This document shows, one piece after another, positions 42,613 through 64,000 of a stretch of 64,000 bases of DNA. Location: the NCBI GenBank assembly GCA_040225955.1, contig JBECUL010000004.1:8297-72296 (forward strand), given 5' to 3'. The stretch is from Candidatus Asgardarchaeum abyssi (GTDB lineage Archaea; Asgardarchaeota; Asgardarchaeia; Asgardarchaeales; Asgardarchaeaceae). Each line of letters opens with the position of its first letter. The first letter of the stretch is position 1. A program made the position numbers and the translations under genes. The notes under the pieces are model-generated. The model was given only the letters and a program-made list of their open reading frames with translations. It did no database searches and was not told the origin of the DNA.

Positions 42613-43593
42613 ATGGAGAAAACTTCATTTGAGCTCGTACCAACCGCACCATATGATTTTGATCTACAATGGAAATTTTATTCTTCTTCGAAAGAACCAC
42701 AACCAGAAATTTATAAGAATGGTATCTGGAGACGGGCTTTTAAAATCGACGATAGATTAATTCCAGTGGCAGTTACCTCTACTGGTACGATAGAAAAACC
42801 AAGATTGGAAATCAATGTATTCTCCAAACTCAATACAAAAGAAGAGAAATATATATTGAGTAAAATCACAGATATTTTTAGATTAAGAGATAATCTTAAA
42901 GCATTGTATGACTTTATGGAACAAGATAAGATACTTCGTAGGGTAAAGAACAAACTTTACGGTTTGAGACCGCCAGGAATAGGAGCGAATATATTTGAGG
43001 GAGCGATCAGAGTAATAATCCAGCAACAGATTTCTTTACAGGTTGCATATGTCATGACAGGGGCATTAGTCAAAAGATTTGGAGAGAGAGTAAAAATTAA
43101 CGGTGAGTTGTATTACGATTTTCCTTCACCACAAGTATTAGCAAACGCTGATGAAAATGAATTGAGGATGTGTAAATTATCTCGCCAGAAATCTAAATAC
43201 ATCAAAGAACTCGCATTGAAGGTTGTCAATGGATACGATTTGGAAAAAATTAAAAGATTGAATAATGAGGAAGCAATCGATGAGTTGATGAAGTTTAAGG
43301 GAATTGGAAGGTGGACGGCCGAGTTGATATTGATAACAACATTGGGGAGAATGGATCTCTGTGTTCCTGACGATCTCGGAGCCAGAAAAGCGGTTTCATA
43401 TTTCTATTTTGACAGAAAACTTCAATCTGGGGATGAGGTTAGAAGGTTCACGAAAAGATGGGGCAAATTCAAAGGATGGATAATTTATTATTTAATATGT
43501 GCTTATAATATGGAAAACAAGAAGAAGAGGTGTAAAATGGAAAAACAAGAACTATACGATAAGGAACCAGTTTGGGCGAGTGGTGCCAAGTGA
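42613..43593 (+). CDS. alkA: DNA-3-methyladenine glycosylase II (AlkA family)
   Basis: IIQQQIS, FPSP, KGIGRWTA HhH motif and PDDLG. Confidence 0.9.
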   Translation: MEKTSFELVPTAPYDFDLQWKFYSSSKEPQPEIYKNGIWRRAFKIDDRLIPVAVTSTGTIEKPRLEINVFSKLNTKEEKYILSKITDIFRLRDNLKALYDFMEQDKILRRVKNKLYGLRPPGIGANIFEGAIRVIIQQQISLQVAYVMTGALVKRFGERVKINGELYYDFPSPQVLANADENELRMCKLSRQKSKYIKELALKVVNGYDLEKIKRLNNEEAIDELMKFKGIGRWTAELILITTLGRMDLCVPDDLGARKAVSYFYFDRKLQSGDEVRRFTKRWGKFKGWIIYYLICAYNMENKKKRCKMEKQELYDKEPVWASGAK

Positions 43594-55298: not shown

Positions 55299-56081
55299 TT
55301 ATGAAAATGAAGACAAAAGAATAAACAACCCTGATAATAAAACAATCAGAGACAATAACGTTTTAAGAGGCTTTCGAGGTACTTTTGAATTTAATTTAAA
55401 TCCTATAAAAGTTCCAGGTAAAGTCCCAAGAATTAGTAGGGATGCAAGTATAAAATTGATAGTACCCAGTGTTGAGTGAACCAATGTGCTACTTGAAGTC
55501 AGTAAAAAGCTATAAGGCATAGTAGTTCCGACAATGTTATGAGGACTTAAATTTGTGAAAACCAAAAGGAAAAAAACCACTAATGTGCCGCTACCCACTG
55601 AAGTAAATTGAACAGTAAATCCAACTATAAATCCTATAATTAAAGTTTTAAGAAAAGTTATCTTTCTTTCAGCATGTTTTCTATAAAGATGATTCCCTAA
55701 TATCGTTATCAGTGATACAACAATTAAAACTACTCCAAGAGCGATTGATACGAAGAAATCTATACTAATACCATTGCTTTTCAAAAAATGAAGTGCAAGA
55801 CCACCAAGAACTATTGCAGGTAGACTCCCAAGATACAATAACATCGCTAGTCGCATATTAATCTCATGCCTAGAATAAAATAGAGCAGATCCAAAGAGTT
55901 TAGTAATAGTAGAATATAGCAAGTCCGTGCCGACAGCAACTACAGGGTCCACTCCTAAAAAAATAAGAATAGGGGTCATAATGGCTCCACCGCCCATCCC
56001 AGTTAAGCCTATGAGAATGCCTACTACTAATCCAAGTACGATGTAAAGCAGTGCAACAATGGAGTCCATAGTATCCTTCAC
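55299..56081 (-). CDS. TauE/SafE family (TSUP) transporter
   Basis: GLTGMGGGAIMTP, AVGTDL and TSVGSG. Confidence 0.9.
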   Translation of the reverse strand: MKDTMDSIVALLYIVLGLVVGILIGLTGMGGGAIMTPILIFLGVDPVVAVGTDLLYSTITKLFGSALFYSRHEINMRLAMLLYLGSLPAIVLGGLALHFLKSNGISIDFFVSIALGVVLIVVSLITILGNHLYRKHAERKITFLKTLIIGFIVGFTVQFTSVGSGTLVVFFLLVFTNLSPHNIVGTTMPYSFLLTSSSTLVHSTLGTINFILASLLILGTLPGTFIGFKLNSKVPRKPLKTLLSLIVLLSGLFILLSSFS

Positions 56082-56094
56082 ATCCTCAAAAGAC

Positions 56095-56313
56095 TTAATC
56101 TAAATACCCAAGAGACCGAAGCCTTTCTTTTACTTGTTCCTCTTCCTCTTTGCTGAATACTTCCTCCTCTTCTTCCTCTTCGGAGAGAACCTCCCGAAGT
56201 ACAAAAGTTACATATTCCTCAACACTCTTAAATTCTGTATCCTTTATCTGTTCTTCAATTTTTTTGTACAAACTTTTGGGAATCGGAACATTTACCTTTT
56301 CTTCATCACTCAT
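56095..56313 (-). CDS. CopG/RHH protein with acidic RLxxLGY tail
   Basis: VNVPIPKSLYKKI...FKSVEEYVTFVLRE then EEEEQVKERLRSLGYLD; GGAGGTG SD. Confidence 0.85.
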   Translation of the reverse strand: MSDEEKVNVPIPKSLYKKIEEQIKDTEFKSVEEYVTFVLREVLSEEEEEEEVFSKEEEEQVKERLRSLGYLD

Positions 56314-56346
56314 TGAAAACACCTCCATATTATTTTGGAATGGAAC

Positions 56347-56874
56347 TTATTTTTTACTCAAATAACCTAATTCCTCTGCCTTAGAAAGAACTGCGTCTAC
56401 CTCTTCATCAATAGACATAATATGAGATTGAACCACAACTTCCGGATTATCAGGCTCCTCATATACACCGTCGTAACCGGTTAATCCTTTTATTTCTCCT
56501 TTTATTGCTTTTGCATAAAGCCCTTTGGGGTCTCTCTGTATTCTTACCTCTAAAGGGCATTTTAGATATACTTCTATGAACTTGCCAAGCTCCTTACGGG
56601 CAAACTCTCTTACTGCTTTGTAAGGGGATATTAATGATACTATTGCTACAACACCATTTCTTGAGAGTAATTTAGCCATGTGAATCACTACTCGATTATG
56701 CATTTCTCTTGCCTCTTTACTGAATCCTAGATTTGGATACAATGTCTTTCTGATAACGTCTCCATCTAATACTTCTACGCGATACCCCATATCCTTCAAT
56801 CTTTTTTCCAAGGCATGTGCCAGTGTAGATTTACCAGCACCACTAGGTCCAGTCAGCCAGATAACGAAACTCAT
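56347..56874 (-). CDS. cysC: Adenylyl-sulfate (APS) kinase
   Basis: WLTGPSGAGKST, LDGD, ISPY, RDPKGLY and YEEP. Confidence 0.95.
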   Translation of the reverse strand: MSFVIWLTGPSGAGKSTLAHALEKRLKDMGYRVEVLDGDVIRKTLYPNLGFSKEAREMHNRVVIHMAKLLSRNGVVAIVSLISPYKAVREFARKELGKFIEVYLKCPLEVRIQRDPKGLYAKAIKGEIKGLTGYDGVYEEPDNPEVVVQSHIMSIDEEVDAVLSKAEELGYLSKK

Positions 56875-58262
56875 ATTATGCTTTTCCCCCTTAATCCTTC
56901 TCTTTGTATTCCAAATAGCTTCAAAATGGTGGGGGCAAAATCATAGATTGATAGTCTAACTTGTTTGGAGTTACTCATACCAGGAAAATATAGAGTAAAT
57001 ATTCCATCAACTGCATGAACCGCATCATCGGGTCCAGTATCATTTTCTAACAAGTATGGTGTGGGATATCCTAATGTTCCAGCAGAACGCCAATAAAGAT
57101 TGTCAAAATAAACCATCATATCTGGCTTATCGCCACGTGTTTCTGGGTAGATTCTCTCAGGATAAAAGACTTTTGTGTCCCATCTTTCCCCATTAGGACC
57201 TCTGATTGACTTTATTCTTTCTGCAACTTCATCTCTAACCCTCTCATATTCAGATAGACTAATTACACCATTGGGTTCTCGTCCCTTCACATTAAGAAAT
57301 ACACGTGCATAATAACCGCCCCATCCCCATGCTATTGTGGAACTCCAGTCAACATCAAGTTCATCAAACTTCACCTGCTTTCCAGATTTTAAAATTTCCA
57401 GATTTCGGATTTTTAGTAATCCCTCTTCAATTAGCCACTGATTTATAACAAATGCACCCTTCATCCTCTTTATACCATGATCCGATACCATAACCACAGC
57501 AGTATCCTCATCGAGTAACTTTAGCGTTTTTCCAATTTCTTCGTCTAGAAGCTTATAGTAATCGGGAATAACATTCTTATACTTGCTATTCGGCTCATAT
57601 AGATGATGCCCCTTGTCAAAATACTTCCAAAAAGCGTGATGAATCCTATCAAGACCTATTTCTACGAATTCAAAGTAATTCCAATCTTTCTCTTGAATAA
57701 GATATCTTATTACCTCAAAACGCCGTTTTGTCATCTCCCAAATTTGCTCTTTTACCTCATCACGCGCCTCTCTTCTAAATGGAACATCAAATATGTACTC
57801 TCCAACTACATTTTCAACTTCCTTCTTAAGCTCAGCGGGATAAGTATATTGGGTCTGTGCGTTAGGAGTTATAAAACATGAAATCATCCAACCATTAATT
57901 TTCTTAGGAGGGTAGCTAGGTGGTACGCCTATAAGGATAGATTTGTAGCCAGCCTCTCCTAAATAATCCCAGATTGCCTTTTCTTTAATCATTTTACTAT
58001 GTGCGATCCATATCTCGTTGTAAGTTCCACTTTTCCTATGCCGAAATCCGTATAGACCTAGCTCACCAGGAGTTTTGCTGGTTGCCATTACCATCCAAGC
58101 GGGTATTGTGATAGCGGGAATGCAACTTTCCATTGGGCCATACATTGACCTTTCTATCAACTTCTTTATATTAGGTAAATCTTCTGAAAATTTCCCAAAC
58201 AATAAATCTGGAGGGGCTGAATCAAGCCCTATAACAAACACTTTGTTGACTTTTGTTTCCAT
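56871..58262 (-). CDS. Alkaline phosphatase superfamily enzyme (NPP/type I phosphodiesterase-like)
   Basis: IGLDSA, PAITIPAW (probable Thr nucleophile), DRIHH, SDHG and DAVH; no obvious signal peptide. Confidence 0.88.
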   Translation of the reverse strand: METKVNKVFVIGLDSAPPDLLFGKFSEDLPNIKKLIERSMYGPMESCIPAITIPAWMVMATSKTPGELGLYGFRHRKSGTYNEIWIAHSKMIKEKAIWDYLGEAGYKSILIGVPPSYPPKKINGWMISCFITPNAQTQYTYPAELKKEVENVVGEYIFDVPFRREARDEVKEQIWEMTKRRFEVIRYLIQEKDWNYFEFVEIGLDRIHHAFWKYFDKGHHLYEPNSKYKNVIPDYYKLLDEEIGKTLKLLDEDTAVVMVSDHGIKRMKGAFVINQWLIEEGLLKIRNLEILKSGKQVKFDELDVDWSSTIAWGWGGYYARVFLNVKGREPNGVISLSEYERVRDEVAERIKSIRGPNGERWDTKVFYPERIYPETRGDKPDMMVYFDNLYWRSAGTLGYPTPYLLENDTGPDDAVHAVDGIFTLYFPGMSNSKQVRLSIYDFAPTILKLFGIQREGLRGKSII

Positions 58263-58288
58263 TATAATCACCATTCCATAGAACAAAA

Positions 58289-59449
58289 TTATTCCACAAA
58301 TGGATTCTTAAAACTAAGAATCACTTTTGCAACCTCTGGGCGCATCATCTCTTTTGGGGGTATCTTTCCCTCTAAGAGCATTTTTCTTATTTTTGTACCA
58401 CTGGGGCGAATTATATCATCACCAGAATGAGGGCATATATTCGAATTTACATACCCCATGCACTTCTTACAGTAATAGAACTCTTTGAAGAATATAGGCG
58501 CGATGCCTAAATCTGGAAATTCATTGAAGATTTCTTGAGCTTCATAAGGACCATAGTAGTTACCAACACCCGCATGGTCACGCCCAACTATGAAATGTGT
58601 GCAACCAAAGTTTTTACGAACGATAGCGTGAAATATAGCTTCTCTTGGTCCTGCATATCTCATCTCTGTTCTTAAAATTGCAAGCACTGCTTTATCTTTT
58701 AGATAGTAGTGAGCAATTAGCTCTTCATAAGCCTTAAGAATTACTTCATCCTTAAAATCGCCAGGCTTTTTCTTACCAATTACAGGATTTATGAAAAGGC
58801 CGTCAATGAATGTAAGAGCTGTTTTCTGAATATATTCATGACCCATATGGGGCGCATTTCTTGTTTGGAATCCAACAACAGTCCTCCACCCCTTAGCTCT
58901 GAAAAGAACCCGCGTTTCAACAGGTCTTAGGGTATAACGCTCAAACGGATTTTCTATGCCTTCTATGAAATCTATTCTCCCTCCAACCAAGCGATCCTTC
59001 ATTTGATATGTCTTCAAAACACCAGGATGATTCTTATCAGTTGTCTTGAATACTTTCTGAGCATGCACTTTTTTGTCATAGGTATAAATATCTTCTATAT
59101 TTAGCAGCGCTATCGCTTTTCCGTTATAAGTAAGAACTACTGTATCTCCTGGCTTGATTTGCTTATTAGAAAGCTCTTCTGAGGATACGTCAAGAACTAT
59201 CGGAATCGTCCACGGCGTGTCATCCTCTAAACGCATACTTTTAAGTACAGCAAGATAATCATTTTGCGTCATAAATCCTTCAAGTGGGCTAAATACGCCG
59301 TAGGCAATATTCTCAATATCAACAGCTAAATCTTTTGATACTTCTATCCTAGGAAACTCTTTAACCTGCTCCAATACACTTTCCTTAGAGCGCCTTTCTA
59401 AAACCCTATTCACTAACCTACCACCATGAGGTCTAGGTAGACCCACCAT
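58289..59449 (-). CDS. sat: Sulfate adenylyltransferase (ATP sulfurylase)
   Basis: PHGGRL, FQTRNAPHMGH, RYAGPREA, GRDHAG and SGTKIR. Confidence 0.96.
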   Translation of the reverse strand: MVGLPRPHGGRLVNRVLERRSKESVLEQVKEFPRIEVSKDLAVDIENIAYGVFSPLEGFMTQNDYLAVLKSMRLEDDTPWTIPIVLDVSSEELSNKQIKPGDTVVLTYNGKAIALLNIEDIYTYDKKVHAQKVFKTTDKNHPGVLKTYQMKDRLVGGRIDFIEGIENPFERYTLRPVETRVLFRAKGWRTVVGFQTRNAPHMGHEYIQKTALTFIDGLFINPVIGKKKPGDFKDEVILKAYEELIAHYYLKDKAVLAILRTEMRYAGPREAIFHAIVRKNFGCTHFIVGRDHAGVGNYYGPYEAQEIFNEFPDLGIAPIFFKEFYYCKKCMGYVNSNICPHSGDDIIRPSGTKIRKMLLEGKIPPKEMMRPEVAKVILSFKNPFVE

Positions 59450-59466
59450 AATTGCTCACCCCTTTA

Positions 59467-59703
59467 TCATAAATATCCTAACGCCTTCAAACGCCTCTTT
59501 ATACGCTCTTCATCCTCTTTTGAAAATGCTTTATCTTTGAGCTCTTCTTCAATGCTCGCAAGAATTTCACGTAAAATGAAAGTAACATAATCAGAAACCG
59601 ATGTGAAACCCGTCCCCTCTATCATCCTTTTTATCTTCTCATATAAAGGTACGGGAATTGATATCGTGGTAAATTTTCTTACCTTTTCAGCTTTCTTTGA
59701 CAT
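59467..59703 (-). CDS. CopG/RHH protein with acidic RLxxLGY tail (paralog of 56095-56313)
   Basis: TISIPVPLYEKI...FTSVSDYVTFILRE then EDEERIKRRLKALGYL; GGTGAT SD. Confidence 0.85.
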   Translation of the reverse strand: MSKKAEKVRKFTTISIPVPLYEKIKRMIEGTGFTSVSDYVTFILREILASIEEELKDKAFSKEDEERIKRRLKALGYL

Positions 59704-59745
59704 AAGGATCACCATCATAAACTAATAACTTTTTACCATCACCAT

Positions 59746-59883
59746 CTACCTTTTGTAACCATATTTTATAAACGCCCAAAATCTCTCAAGGCTGTTAGCT
59801 ATTCCATAGCTCATCGCTTTCAGATGTCTAACTATGTTTATGGCGAATATTTCTGCTCCTCTGCTTGTGACTAAGAATTTCAT
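59746..59883 (-). pseudogene. 45-codon ORF, probable remnant of an SDR epimerase N-terminus
   Basis: GGTGGTG SD, then MKFLVTSRGAEIFAINIVRHLKAM..., resembling a decayed MKxLVTGGAG Rossmann start. Confidence 0.4.
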
Positions 59884-59898
59884 TTTCACACCACCTGT

Positions 59899-60675
59899 TC
59901 ATATATTCAATACTATTAGATTTCTAACTGATAAAAACATTATTAGTATTCCTATTATTGGCATTAAATACTTTTTTGGGGCTCTTCTGCAAACAACGGC
60001 TCCCAATGGTGCTATTATAACTCCTCCTATCATAAGCCCTAAAACGATAAAGAAGTTCTGAAAGCCAATTAGTACAAAAAAGGTTAGTGTCTCACATAAA
60101 GTAACAAAGAATTCTGCTAAGTTTACGGAACCAATAGCTTCAACAGGGTCATTTCCTTCTGCAATCAGAGTTGATGTTACTATCGGCCCCCATCCTCCGC
60201 CTCCAATTGCATCCATAAAACCGCCTATTCCAGCAAGGAAGGGCTTGTTTACTTTCTTCACGATGAGGTTTATATTGAAAGCTCTAAACAGGATTACAAT
60301 TCCCATTGTGCACAGGTATATATTCACTGCGGGCTTCATGAGCCATATTGGCATATCAACAAGCAAGTAAGCTCCTACAATTGCACCAATGCACCCTGGA
60401 ACAACTAGTTGTTTGAATAGCTTCCTATCTACATTTCCAACTTTAAGGTGACTCGTTCCTGAAGCTAAAGTCGTAAACACTTCTGCCGTGTGAATACTAG
60501 CACTTGCTACTGCCGGGGTAATCCCTATTGCTAAAAGAAAAGTGTTTGATATAACTCCGTATGCCATGCCTAATGCTCCATCGATAAGCTGAGCAAATGC
60601 ACCAACAAGTAGTGTTAGAAAAAAGATTTCCCATATATAATCAAAGCCACCAACCATATAAGACATGACACTCAC
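59899..60675 (-). CDS. TauE/SafE family (TSUP) transporter
   Basis: DGALGMAYG, ASASIHTAEVFT, GGGGWGP and GSVNLAEFFV. Confidence 0.9.
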   Translation of the reverse strand: MSVMSYMVGGFDYIWEIFFLTLLVGAFAQLIDGALGMAYGVISNTFLLAIGITPAVASASIHTAEVFTTLASGTSHLKVGNVDRKLFKQLVVPGCIGAIVGAYLLVDMPIWLMKPAVNIYLCTMGIVILFRAFNINLIVKKVNKPFLAGIGGFMDAIGGGGWGPIVTSTLIAEGNDPVEAIGSVNLAEFFVTLCETLTFFVLIGFQNFFIVLGLMIGGVIIAPLGAVVCRRAPKKYLMPIIGILIMFLSVRNLIVLNI

Positions 60676-60907
60676 CTACTTGAGAGTATGTGCCGTGTAA
60701 AAAATAAATAATAAATAAAAGTAAAAAGTAAAATGAATAATACGCAGGTATTTTTACAATAAACTCAGTTATGCCGAACTTAAACGATAACCACAAATCA
60801 CCAGATAAAAAATAAACTATCAGAGGTGACACTAAAAAGCTCTGATACAGCCTATAGCTTATTGTTTTCGCTAAGCTCCTTGCCTGCGTTTCATTTGACC
60901 TAACCAT
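60641..60907 (-). CDS. DUF2061-like small membrane protein, C-terminus possibly degraded
   Basis: ETQARSLAKTISYR...KIPAYY; the expected ERxW ending is absent. Confidence 0.55.
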   Translation of the reverse strand: MVRSNETQARSLAKTISYRLYQSFLVSPLIVYFLSGDLWLSFKFGITEFIVKIPAYYSFYFLLLFIIYFLHGTYSQVGECHVLYGWWL

Positions 60908-61155
60908 CAGACATCACTTTTCTGCTTCCCTTTAAACAATTAAATGTGTTACTTTTAACTGTAATGTTATTTAATTATATTTAATTAATTATTATTTTTG
61001 TTATTAAAATAATTTCAATAGATGCTTATAAATGTTTTCCAGACGACATGATTACTATTTACATCGATGTTTTTGCTCTGAATATAAACTACCACTGAAA
61101 AAGTTTAGTAATTCAAAAGTAAATTACTGTAACACGATTTAATAACTCAATATAG

Positions 61156-63249: not shown

Positions 63250-64000
63250 TTATCCCGTCACCTCCAATATTTCCCATCTTCCTGCCTCAGCCACCTTTTC
63301 AAGTTGTCTCAATTTGCTCTCATAAAGCCGATAACTATCGCTATTCATCTCAAAGTTAGTTCCGCTTATCATCATACCCCATAGCACTATAAGCACCTTA
63401 TGCGCAAGCGCAGTCATGACTTTGTACTTGCCGCTTCTACGCCTGATCCGTATGTATAACGCATATAAACTCTTAGGCTCCCTATGAAGCACTATTATAT
63501 TCGCTACCTCATGAAGAACGTACCTTAAATAGGGTGAACTGCTCTTCGTAATACCATATCCCTTTTGAATACCTGCTGGTTCCCGAGTAGCAGGTACTAA
63601 CCCGCCCATTTCGAAATCTTCTTCTTATCCTTGAATCGAGTAAAGTCGCCTAACCTCGGCAGCTATCACTGTTGCAGTCATTAAACTTATACCAGGCAGC
63701 GTCATCATTTGACGAATCATCGCCTTATGTTTTCATGCTTCTCCATGTACGCAGCTATCATCAATTCCAGCCTCTTAATTCGCTCATCCAACTCTTCAAT
63801 TAACCCCATAAGAATACTTATTGCCTTCTTATTTAGTAGTTCTAAAAATGCGTTTTCAATAATCTCTCTAACCGTGTCATCAATACTGTTTACATCGCCT
63901 GTTGAAACTATTACTTCCAGAACCTCCCGTCCACGTTTCCCGAATATATCTGAGTACGCCTTACCTAGTGCAGTTCGGCTCTAGTAAGCAATGCATGAAC
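63250..64000 (-). mobile_element. IS110-family transposase pseudogene (multiple frameshifts, runs off window end)
   Basis: Fragments in different frames: SDIFGKRGRE, MTLPGISLMTATVIAAEV, GDFTRFKDKKKISKWAG and LVP...ITKSSSPYLRYVLHEVA...ALAHK. Confidence 0.88.

Follow-up and report, generated by a model that had tools for sequence, protein, structure and literature searches.

Gene clusters for the activation of sulfate to 3′-phosphoadenosine 5′-phosphosulfate (PAPS) have been published for the archaea Pyrococcus yayanosii (PYCH_17520-17560) and Thermococcus onnurineus (TON_1704-1707) (PMC8268124, PMC4463584), and a cluster from Ferroglobus placidus is included in PMC8268124. In the passages searched of these papers, a small gene of the cluster is annotated 'putative copG' (PMC8268124) and is called a putative regulator only, and TON_1705 is cited, after Lee et al. 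2009, as a characterised inorganic pyrophosphatase (PMC4463584, PMC8268124). Here we analysed a 64-kb stretch of contig JBECUL010000004.1 from Candidatus Asgardarchaeum abyssi (the window, by which we mean this whole stretch) and found a cluster with the same gene set and order: a copG-type gene, ATP sulfurylase (Sat), a type I phosphodiesterase/NPP of the alkaline phosphatase (AlkP) superfamily, adenosine 5′-phosphosulfate (APS) kinase (CysC) and an adjacent TauE gene. The AlkP gene of the window holds the same operon position as PYCH_17550 and TON_1705 in the parts of the published descriptions that we searched (PMC8268124, PMC4463584). The window cluster differs from the published one in having no DHH-type phosphatase for 3′-phosphoadenosine 5′-phosphate (pAp) and in having two TauE genes and two paralogous small genes of the ribbon-helix-helix (RHH) type, RHH1 and RHH2. 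Of these two, RHH2 corresponds to the 'putative copG' gene, and it shares 74% identity with an RHH homolog whose named source is F. placidus.

Both RHH proteins end in a conserved tail. In the passages searched of PMC8268124 and PMC4463584, and in literature searches, we found no description of this tail, of the operator reported below or of an acidic second paralog; literature searches on the tail motif, on RHH proteins with APS kinase or sulfurylase and on COG3379 returned nothing on the tail. Our preferred reading, to which we assign a probability of roughly 55%, is that RHH2 is the dedicated regulator of the archaeal PAPS cluster and acts through phased TAATTA sites, that the tail is a contact or input helix and that RHH1 is an acidic modulator. 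RHH2 would be a transcription regulator, probably a repressor, of the PAPS-synthesis cluster. Its dimers would insert the ribbon [KR]-[YF]-T-T-x-S-I-P into palindromic TAATTA hexamers that recur once per helical turn, with a period of 10 bp, at the promoter or the start of transcription. The C-terminal ~20 residues, predicted to be a short amphipathic helix that is tethered by an acidic segment, would serve as a portable protein-contact module. What the sequences show directly is family membership, linkage to the operons, conservation of the operator and the portability of the tail; binding to DNA, repression, the contacts of the tail and the function of RHH1 belong to the proposal.

Operon linkage and putative operator of RHH2-type genes

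RHH2-type genes were found at the head of PAPS operons in many archaeal phyla. In a context set of 80 loci, on contigs from one genome per species, an operon for sulfate activation starts with the RHH2-type gene in about 75, and the direct downstream neighbours of this gene were Sat, CysD-CysN or AlkP-CysC. The order Sat-DHH-(sulfotransferase)-CysC-(sulfotransferase)-Na/sulfate symporter was present at about 40 loci, Sat-(DHH)-AlkP-CysC at 15 and CysD-CysN-DHH-CysC-sulfotransferase at 7; AlkP-CysC alone was found at 9 loci, and a small AlkP together with a PAPS-reductase-domain protein and CysN at 8. No toxin gene adjoins RHH2. Its neighbours in the window are Sat, AlkP, CysC and TauE, and at about 75 of the 80 loci the RHH2-type gene adjoins genes of the PAPS pathway. 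At one locus (L023:4726-6801), a PAPS-reductase/CysD-like gene downstream of the RHH gene is split by an intein with a LAGLIDADG domain.

The regions upstream of RHH2-type genes contain palindromic hexamers, TAAT[TG]A, that recur with a 10-bp period in 2–5 copies (for example, TAATTAaataTAATTA), and these arrays usually follow a TATA-like box and precede the start codon. Of 75 RHH2-type upstream regions, 54 held one hexamer pair or more, which corresponds to 5.1 sites per kb. The remainder of the same loci held 5 sites in 875 kb, and 4 of these were also upstream of RHH genes, with flanks too short to count, which leaves 1 true background site. A second set of 62 loci (354 kb) from the phylum of the window contained 15 sites, 13 of them directly 5′ of an RHH2-type gene and 2 directly 5′ of the adjoining AlkP gene. 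In the window, the only exact TAATKA-N4-TAATKA site (60972-60987) precedes the DUF2061 gene at the head of the cluster, and a TATA-like TTTATAA (61026-61032) is located about 35 bp upstream of it. These arrays are the strongest evidence that RHH2-type proteins are DNA-binding operon regulators, with the binding itself and the direction of regulation inferred. A preliminary description of this DNA, made from the sequence alone, had suggested that an RHH fold could couple enzyme state to transcription of the operon. The conserved operator array beside RHH2-type genes agrees with the transcriptional part of that suggestion. Delivery of the tail to AlkP in trans, completion of its active site and a tyrosine sulfo-carrier, which the same description had proposed, find no support in the genomic context.

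The genome of the window contains 11 other hexamer-pair sites, which lie mostly within open reading frames (ORFs) and which we treated as chance occurrences. One of the few intergenic hexamer pairs of this genome is on contig C5, outside the window (~42965-43356), about 100 bp 5′ of a 96-residue ORF that resembles another small RHH-type protein.

Homologs of RHH2 (n = 342) are 70–80 residues long and approximately 70% identical across Archaea, with named sources that include Ferroglobus, Archaeoglobus, Thermococcus, Methanocaldococcus, Altiarchaeales, Korarchaeota, Thermoplasmatota and Asgard lineages. The strand [KR][YF]TT.SIP, the turn G-F-T-S-V-S-D-Y and the tail residues L77, L80, G81 and Y82 are near-invariant or invariant in this family. 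An AlphaFold2 (AF2) monomer model of RHH2 contained helices at residues 23-33 and 41-62, with a predicted local distance difference test score (pLDDT) of about 90, and a third helix at residues 67-80 that is the tail; alpha1, alpha2 and a tail helix at a pLDDT of about 75-81 count among the evidence for the fold. Strand residues 17-22 were unformed in this monomer, as expected when the partner chain is absent. The nearest solved structure by profile was the NikR RHH domain, a weak match (E 0.065), and a profile search of PDB structures found no solved structure with the tail among the relatives. The RHH2 family is not covered by any Pfam model, and the likeness of RHH2 to the Pfam family RHH_1 and to NikR-RHH is below threshold but consistent with an RHH fold.

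The PAPS cluster is widespread in Archaea, often amid surface-glycan genes. A regulator with about 70% identity between phyla, and an operator conserved just as well, would offer a testable regulon for archaeal sulfate activation, and the genetically tractable Thermococcales are among its carriers.

The C-terminal tail and its carriers

RHH1 ends in FSKEEEEQVKERLRSLGYLD and RHH2 in FSKEDEERIKRRLKALGYL, with the common ending F-S-K-E-[DE]-E-E-x-[VI]-K-x-R-L-[RK]-x-L-G-Y-L. Because the two proteins are paralogs (52% identity, E 8e-24), their shared tail is inherited and not a chance resemblance. They were the only ORFs in the 2.6-Mb genome that matched the strict C-terminal motif [KR]L[KRQE].[LM]GY[LIMFV]. 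We searched 1.84 billion representative proteins with a 30-column profile of the tail (alignment A2) and obtained 599 matches at E ≤ 1e-3, with scores of up to 60 bits. The match was at or near the C terminus in nearly all of the best 150 of the 599, which were those listed, and the exceptions were a few repeat proteins. Among the matches listed, carriers other than RHH proteins included the sulfatases P0183 and P0275, the NPP-like protein P0269 and the PglZ-like protein P0205. Within the P0269 family (PF01663), 102 of 120 homologs, including haloarchaeal and Chloroflexota proteins, end in [YF][ST].E[DE]E..[VI]..RL..LGY[LIMV][DEG], and most of the members without this motif end in a basic amphipathic helix.

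The tail was also present on a sulfatase at L011:11098-12528, and on both a Sat and a 662-residue NPP-like enzyme at locus L018. At locus L050, a CysC protein carries a separate tail that has been added after its native LEELGLL end. In total, we found the tail on at least six protein families, joined by an acidic linker of about 8 to 45 residues. A search for longer homologs that included the tail region returned whole-RHH fusions only, and no tail-only fusions. Judged from these sequences, the tail is a genuine module that can be carried by different proteins and is attached through a linker both flexible and acidic. The preliminary description had quoted the termini of RHH1, RHH2, CysC and AlkP, all of which are exact in the sequence, and had noted that the RHH paralogs share the tail. 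It also attributed an ExxxxRLxxLGY-type ending to many sulfatase and NPP-like proteins, which is what the P0269 family, the sulfatases and the PglZ-like protein carry, and its idea of a detachable module fits the range of families and linkers found here.

We observed two further occurrences of similar sequences. A 91-residue lipoprotein-like protein, P0130, is built of three tail-like repeats. PAPS-reductase-domain (CysD-like) proteins beside RHH genes (L006, L011, L043, L061, L071, L027 and L008) end in ..RAQDKE..M.KLRALGY[MFW]; these ..RALGY[MFW] ends resemble the tail and also the canonical CysD end, which is ..KKEGYF in L012 and L038.

One possible explanation is that the tail is only a frequent pattern for capping a helix (helix, Gly, aromatic), and that its carriers have no specific function in common. 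Some CysC proteins do end in the pattern L-x-x-L-G-Y, which also recurs in the first helix of the PG_binding_1 repeats of P0215, and weak PG_binding_2 matches span the tail. However, the conserved segment comprises about 20 residues, including an aromatic-[ST]-x-E-[DE]-E lead-in; in L050 it follows a native terminus; and the profile matches described above score up to 60 bits, with nearly all of the 150 listed at or near the C terminus. We consider this explanation very unlikely.

The preliminary description had suggested, by analogy with tyrosine acyl shuttles, that the tail tyrosine might carry a sulfo group transiently. In this second possibility, the AlkP-fold enzyme would use PAPS to load the sulfo (or a phospho) group onto the tyrosine. 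The preliminary description had allowed that this tyrosine might prove poorly conserved among homologs; we found the opposite, as it is invariant in all RHH tails and in LGY-type enzyme tails, and the tail is associated with PAPS genes and AlkP-superfamily enzymes. Such invariance would, however, fit any structural role, and the enzyme of the cluster is reported to be a pyrophosphatase in the passages searched of the papers cited above. Known tyrosine-sulfation sites are acidic. The tail tyrosine, by contrast, has L-G-Y-L flanks with basic residues upstream, and a carrier role is hardly credible.

A third possibility is that the tail is a regulatory handle read by a common factor, such as a hub protein, a metabolite of the pathway, a protease or a chaperone. 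Placed on enzymes, the handle would give post-translational control; placed on the regulator of their genes, it would give transcriptional control. This would account for RHH tails in operons without AlkP and for the tendency of the tail to be on either an enzyme or the neighbouring regulator. The near-invariant R-L-x-x-L-G-Y-hydrophobic core, nearly always at or near the C terminus and on unrelated folds in both archaea and bacteria, also argues for it. By contrast, none of the candidate partners occurs in every operon type, and a tail located internally in P0128, a fusion protein described below, indicates that a free C terminus is not strictly required. We regard a common factor as a tentative alternative, possible though unlikely.

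In our preferred reading, the tail is the contact or input element of the regulator and not a missing part of AlkP. It could join neighbouring dimers on phased sites, in the manner of Mnt and its C-terminal helix, or it could contact other tail-bearing proteins. The tail is, apparently, an undescribed short motif that is sharply conserved and common to a regulator and to hundreds of cytoplasmic AlkP-superfamily enzymes, and identification of its partner would reveal the control or assembly of these enzymes. Should the tail serve self-association of the regulator only, the result would be a useful but ordinary refinement of annotation.

The AlkP-superfamily enzyme, CysC and RHH1

The AlkP enzyme of the window ends in GLRGKSII. 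It aligns end to end with tail-bearing relatives (24–32% identity) and stops where their linker starts. It is 45–59% identical to the AlkP genes of Sat-DHH-AlkP-CysC loci, and all 21 operon-linked orthologs compared are tail-less. We also examined a phylum sample of 301 genomes from the phylum of the window, in which the orthologs have frames of similar tail-less length. The enzyme is the probable pyrophosphatase of the cluster by analogy with TON_1705, its orthology to PYCH_17550 and TON_1705 being inferred from synteny and family.

The preliminary description had proposed that the RHH proteins supply, in trans, the C-terminal helix that this enzyme lacks. The tail, normally fused to an enzyme, would have moved onto small RHH proteins in PAPS operons, and RHH2 or especially RHH1 would dock on the tail-less pyrophosphatase to complete or regulate it and might report enzyme state to the promoter. 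If true, transcription would be switched by the state of the enzyme, much as in CysK-CymR or in the conditional cooperativity of toxin-antitoxin systems. Several results fit the proposal. The tail is the usual ending of the related PF01663 family (102 of 120) and is found on sulfatases and PglZ-like enzymes, whereas the 21 operon-linked orthologs have none and almost always adjoin a tail-bearing RHH gene. In the phylum sample, RHH genes were found in 95 of the 301 genomes and AlkP relatives in 93; nearly every ortholog adjoins an RHH gene, and about 16 RHH-bearing genomes have no ortholog. Two more AlkP subfamilies that lack the LGY tail are paired with RHH-tail genes, one followed by an RHH1-type gene (L084, L085, L137 and L138) and another preceded by a divergent RHH gene (L087 and L088), whereas 10 AlkP paralogs from phylum genomes carry the LGY tail and none of these adjoins an RHH gene. 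In an AF2 monomer model of the tail-bearing enzyme P0278 (overall pLDDT 91), the tail helix (residues 486-498) was predicted with a pLDDT of 76-84. A Foldseek search with this model returned distant NPP/ENPP matches only (template modelling score of about 0.53).

Other results argue against a tail supplied in trans, and we consider it doubtful, indeed quite unlikely. An AlkP ortholog is missing from approximately 47 of the 79 operons headed by an RHH gene, and the RHH tails of these 47 are equally conserved. At least 20 tail-less AlkP paralogs from phylum genomes have no tail-bearing neighbour, and about 8 others end in a basic alternative helix. The L018 locus holds a tail-less AlkP ortholog, a tail-bearing paralog, a tail-bearing Sat and an RHH gene together, and the tail is found on Sat and CysC proteins as well. 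The Thermococcus enzyme at this cluster position, TON_1705, is itself cited as a characterised pyrophosphatase in the passages searched of PMC4463584 and PMC8268124. The paralogs show a partial association and not the clean anticorrelation between fused and stand-alone tails that had been anticipated; a partial pairing of AlkP with RHH tails is what a local regulator would also give, since RHH genes adjoining the genes that they regulate are expected of any such regulator. A helix-1 tryptophan that we considered as the tail-docking residue was kept in tail-bearing and lost in tail-less enzymes in one alignment (A3) but was unlinked to the tail in a second set; we rejected this candidate, and no docking site was found.

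We also observed that no RHH-headed operon combines an AlkP ortholog with a canonical sulfotransferase (L002, L010 and L032-L035 versus L004, L014 and others), and that AlkP is located where a sulfotransferase would be in Sat-DHH-X-CysC. This exclusion may reflect lineage rather than function, because the enzyme is cited as a pyrophosphatase.

CysC of the window ends in EELGYLSKK, and the preliminary description had listed this ending beside those of the two RHH proteins. The tail on the RHH proteins stands, but that on CysC does not. CysC termini vary across 61 related loci (..RGLIE, ..KDII, ..LGYI), with LG[YF]h in 16 of 61, and the L050 protein has both a native end and a separate tail. ELGYL is thus a native, variable terminus of the family, and we rejected CysC as a third tail carrier or hub.

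RHH1 has a net charge of about -12, and RHH1-type proteins range from -8 to -12. They have an acidic N-terminal arm in place of a basic arm, and the strand E-K-V-x-V-x-I-[PKS] replaces [KR][YF]TT.SIP, whereas the tail is kept. From these features, RHH1-type proteins probably do not bind DNA alone; lacking the DNA-reading strand and the basic arm, RHH1 is probably a modulator of RHH2 or of the same partner. Among the first 80 loci, RHH1-type copies were found in AlkP-type operons alone (4 loci and the window, versus 0 in about 50 others), which also fits a tail supplied to AlkP, although these loci are phylogenetically clustered and their count is weak evidence. We observed two natural fusions that involve this type of domain: in P0201, an APS kinase (CysC) is joined to an RHH1-type domain that bears the tail, and P0128 is a single chain of three RHH units (RHH2-like and RHH1-like), two of them with tails and one tail internal. 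The two fusions hint at a physical association of RHH1 with CysC and with RHH2.

Several points weigh against our preferred reading. The RHH_1 match of RHH2 scores 17.6 bits (E 0.0036), under the cut-off of 20.5 bits, and among 25 members of the RHH2 family RHH_1 was found at E ≤ 0.01 in 12 and reached the cut-off in none. The 180 bp upstream of RHH2 itself contain no hexamer array, and the window site is 1.2 kb farther up. One exact site in 64 kb is not significant alone (0.58 expected; at least 2 in 20 of 100 shuffles), and the site is credible because of its position and the cross-genome pattern. The tail helix, at 14 residues, is short for a Mnt-like bundle. The pLDDT of the P0278 tail in the monomer model suggests that the helix packs against the enzyme body, and it fits such docking better than a purely tail-to-tail role; the pairing of three separate AlkP subfamilies with tail-bearing RHH genes keeps an enzyme-docking role alive.

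The cluster is compact and located on the minus strand, with eight genes in the order DUF2061-TauE-RHH2-Sat-AlkP-CysC-RHH1-TauE, as assigned from ORFs and Pfam matches in the window (Table 1). The stop codon of AlkP and the start codon of cysC overlap by 4 nt. The more likely start of RHH2 is the ATG at 59703, which would give a protein of 78 amino acids, as in the nearest relatives. In tblastn searches, a homolog of the DHH pAp phosphatase was absent from both the window and the 93%-complete assembly, and the assembly contained no homolog of the operon-type sulfotransferase or of a second AlkP paralog. Three further observations concern the surrounding DNA. A TATA-like TTTATAAAA, with no hexamer array, is located about 50 bp upstream of the RHH2 start; a 47-codon ORF at 59746-59889 on the minus strand occupies most of the 180-bp gap between TauE and RHH2; and a 119-codon ORF at 63250-63609 on the minus strand resembles, by eye only, the C-terminal part of an IS110-type transposase.

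Table 1. Genes and sequence features of the PAPS cluster in the window
Feature	Position	Strand	Remarks
DUF2061 small membrane protein	60641-60907	-	PF09834, E 4e-7; first gene past the putative operator
TauE/SafE-family permease, copy 1	59899-60675	-	PF01925, E 6.5e-35
RHH2, ribbon-helix-helix-type regulator (predicted)	59467-59718	-	83-aa frame; strand K-F-T-T-I-S-I-P
RHH2 tail module FSKEDEERIKRRLKALGYL	59470-59526	-	C-terminal segment of RHH2
ATP sulfurylase (Sat)	58289-59449	-	PF01747 and PF14306
Tail-less NPP-type AlkP-superfamily enzyme	56871-58286	-	PF01663, E 1.5e-46
APS kinase (CysC)	56347-56874	-	PF01583, E 3e-59
RHH1, acidic RHH2 paralog	56095-56328	-	77 aa; tail at 56098-56157
TauE/SafE-family permease, copy 2	55299-56081	-	PF01925, E 1.4e-43; begins 13 bp after RHH1
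Putative operator	60962-60991	read on -	TAATTA at 60987-60982 and 60977-60972; degenerate ACATTA at 60967-60962; overlapping TAATTA at 60991-60986

Comparison with known systems

DltX-type peptides are small, membrane-associated proteins with a conserved C-terminal tyrosine that is covalently loaded. The tail tyrosine of the RHH proteins is invariant. These proteins are highly charged, and the AF2 model of RHH2 contains short RHH helices and the tail helix only. In sulfur metabolism, the C-terminal tail of CysE inserts into CysK and requires a C-terminal isoleucine, and CymR-CysK is a complex of a regulator with an enzyme. These systems provide a precedent for both C-terminal peptide docking and the pairing of an enzyme with a transcription factor, although the proteins and the motif are different and no CysK is present here.

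RHH antitoxins (ParD, CcdA and RelB) combine an RHH domain with a flexible C-terminal tail that binds a partner and tunes operator binding. RHH2 would have the same arrangement, with a predicted DNA-binding RHH domain and a flexible C-terminal tail. Unlike the antitoxins, it has metabolic enzymes and no toxin gene as neighbours, and its identity of about 70% across phyla contrasts with their fast evolution.

MetJ is an RHH repressor of methionine genes that binds tandem 8-bp met boxes with S-adenosylmethionine as corepressor. Here, too, an RHH-type protein would regulate sulfur-related metabolism through arrays of short tandem repeats; the repeat differs, being a palindrome of 6 bp with a period of 10 bp, no corepressor site is known for RHH2, and a C-terminal tail module is absent from MetJ. 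Mnt of phage P22 consists of an RHH domain and a tetramerising C-terminal helix, and binds repeated half-sites cooperatively. The tail helix described here is shorter (about 14 residues), follows an acidic tether and is also found on enzymes, and we saw no sequence relationship between the two proteins. The likeness to Mnt is in architecture: in both, an RHH domain, predicted in the case of RHH2, is followed by a separate C-terminal helix, and the operator, putative in the case of RHH2, consists of repeated half-sites.

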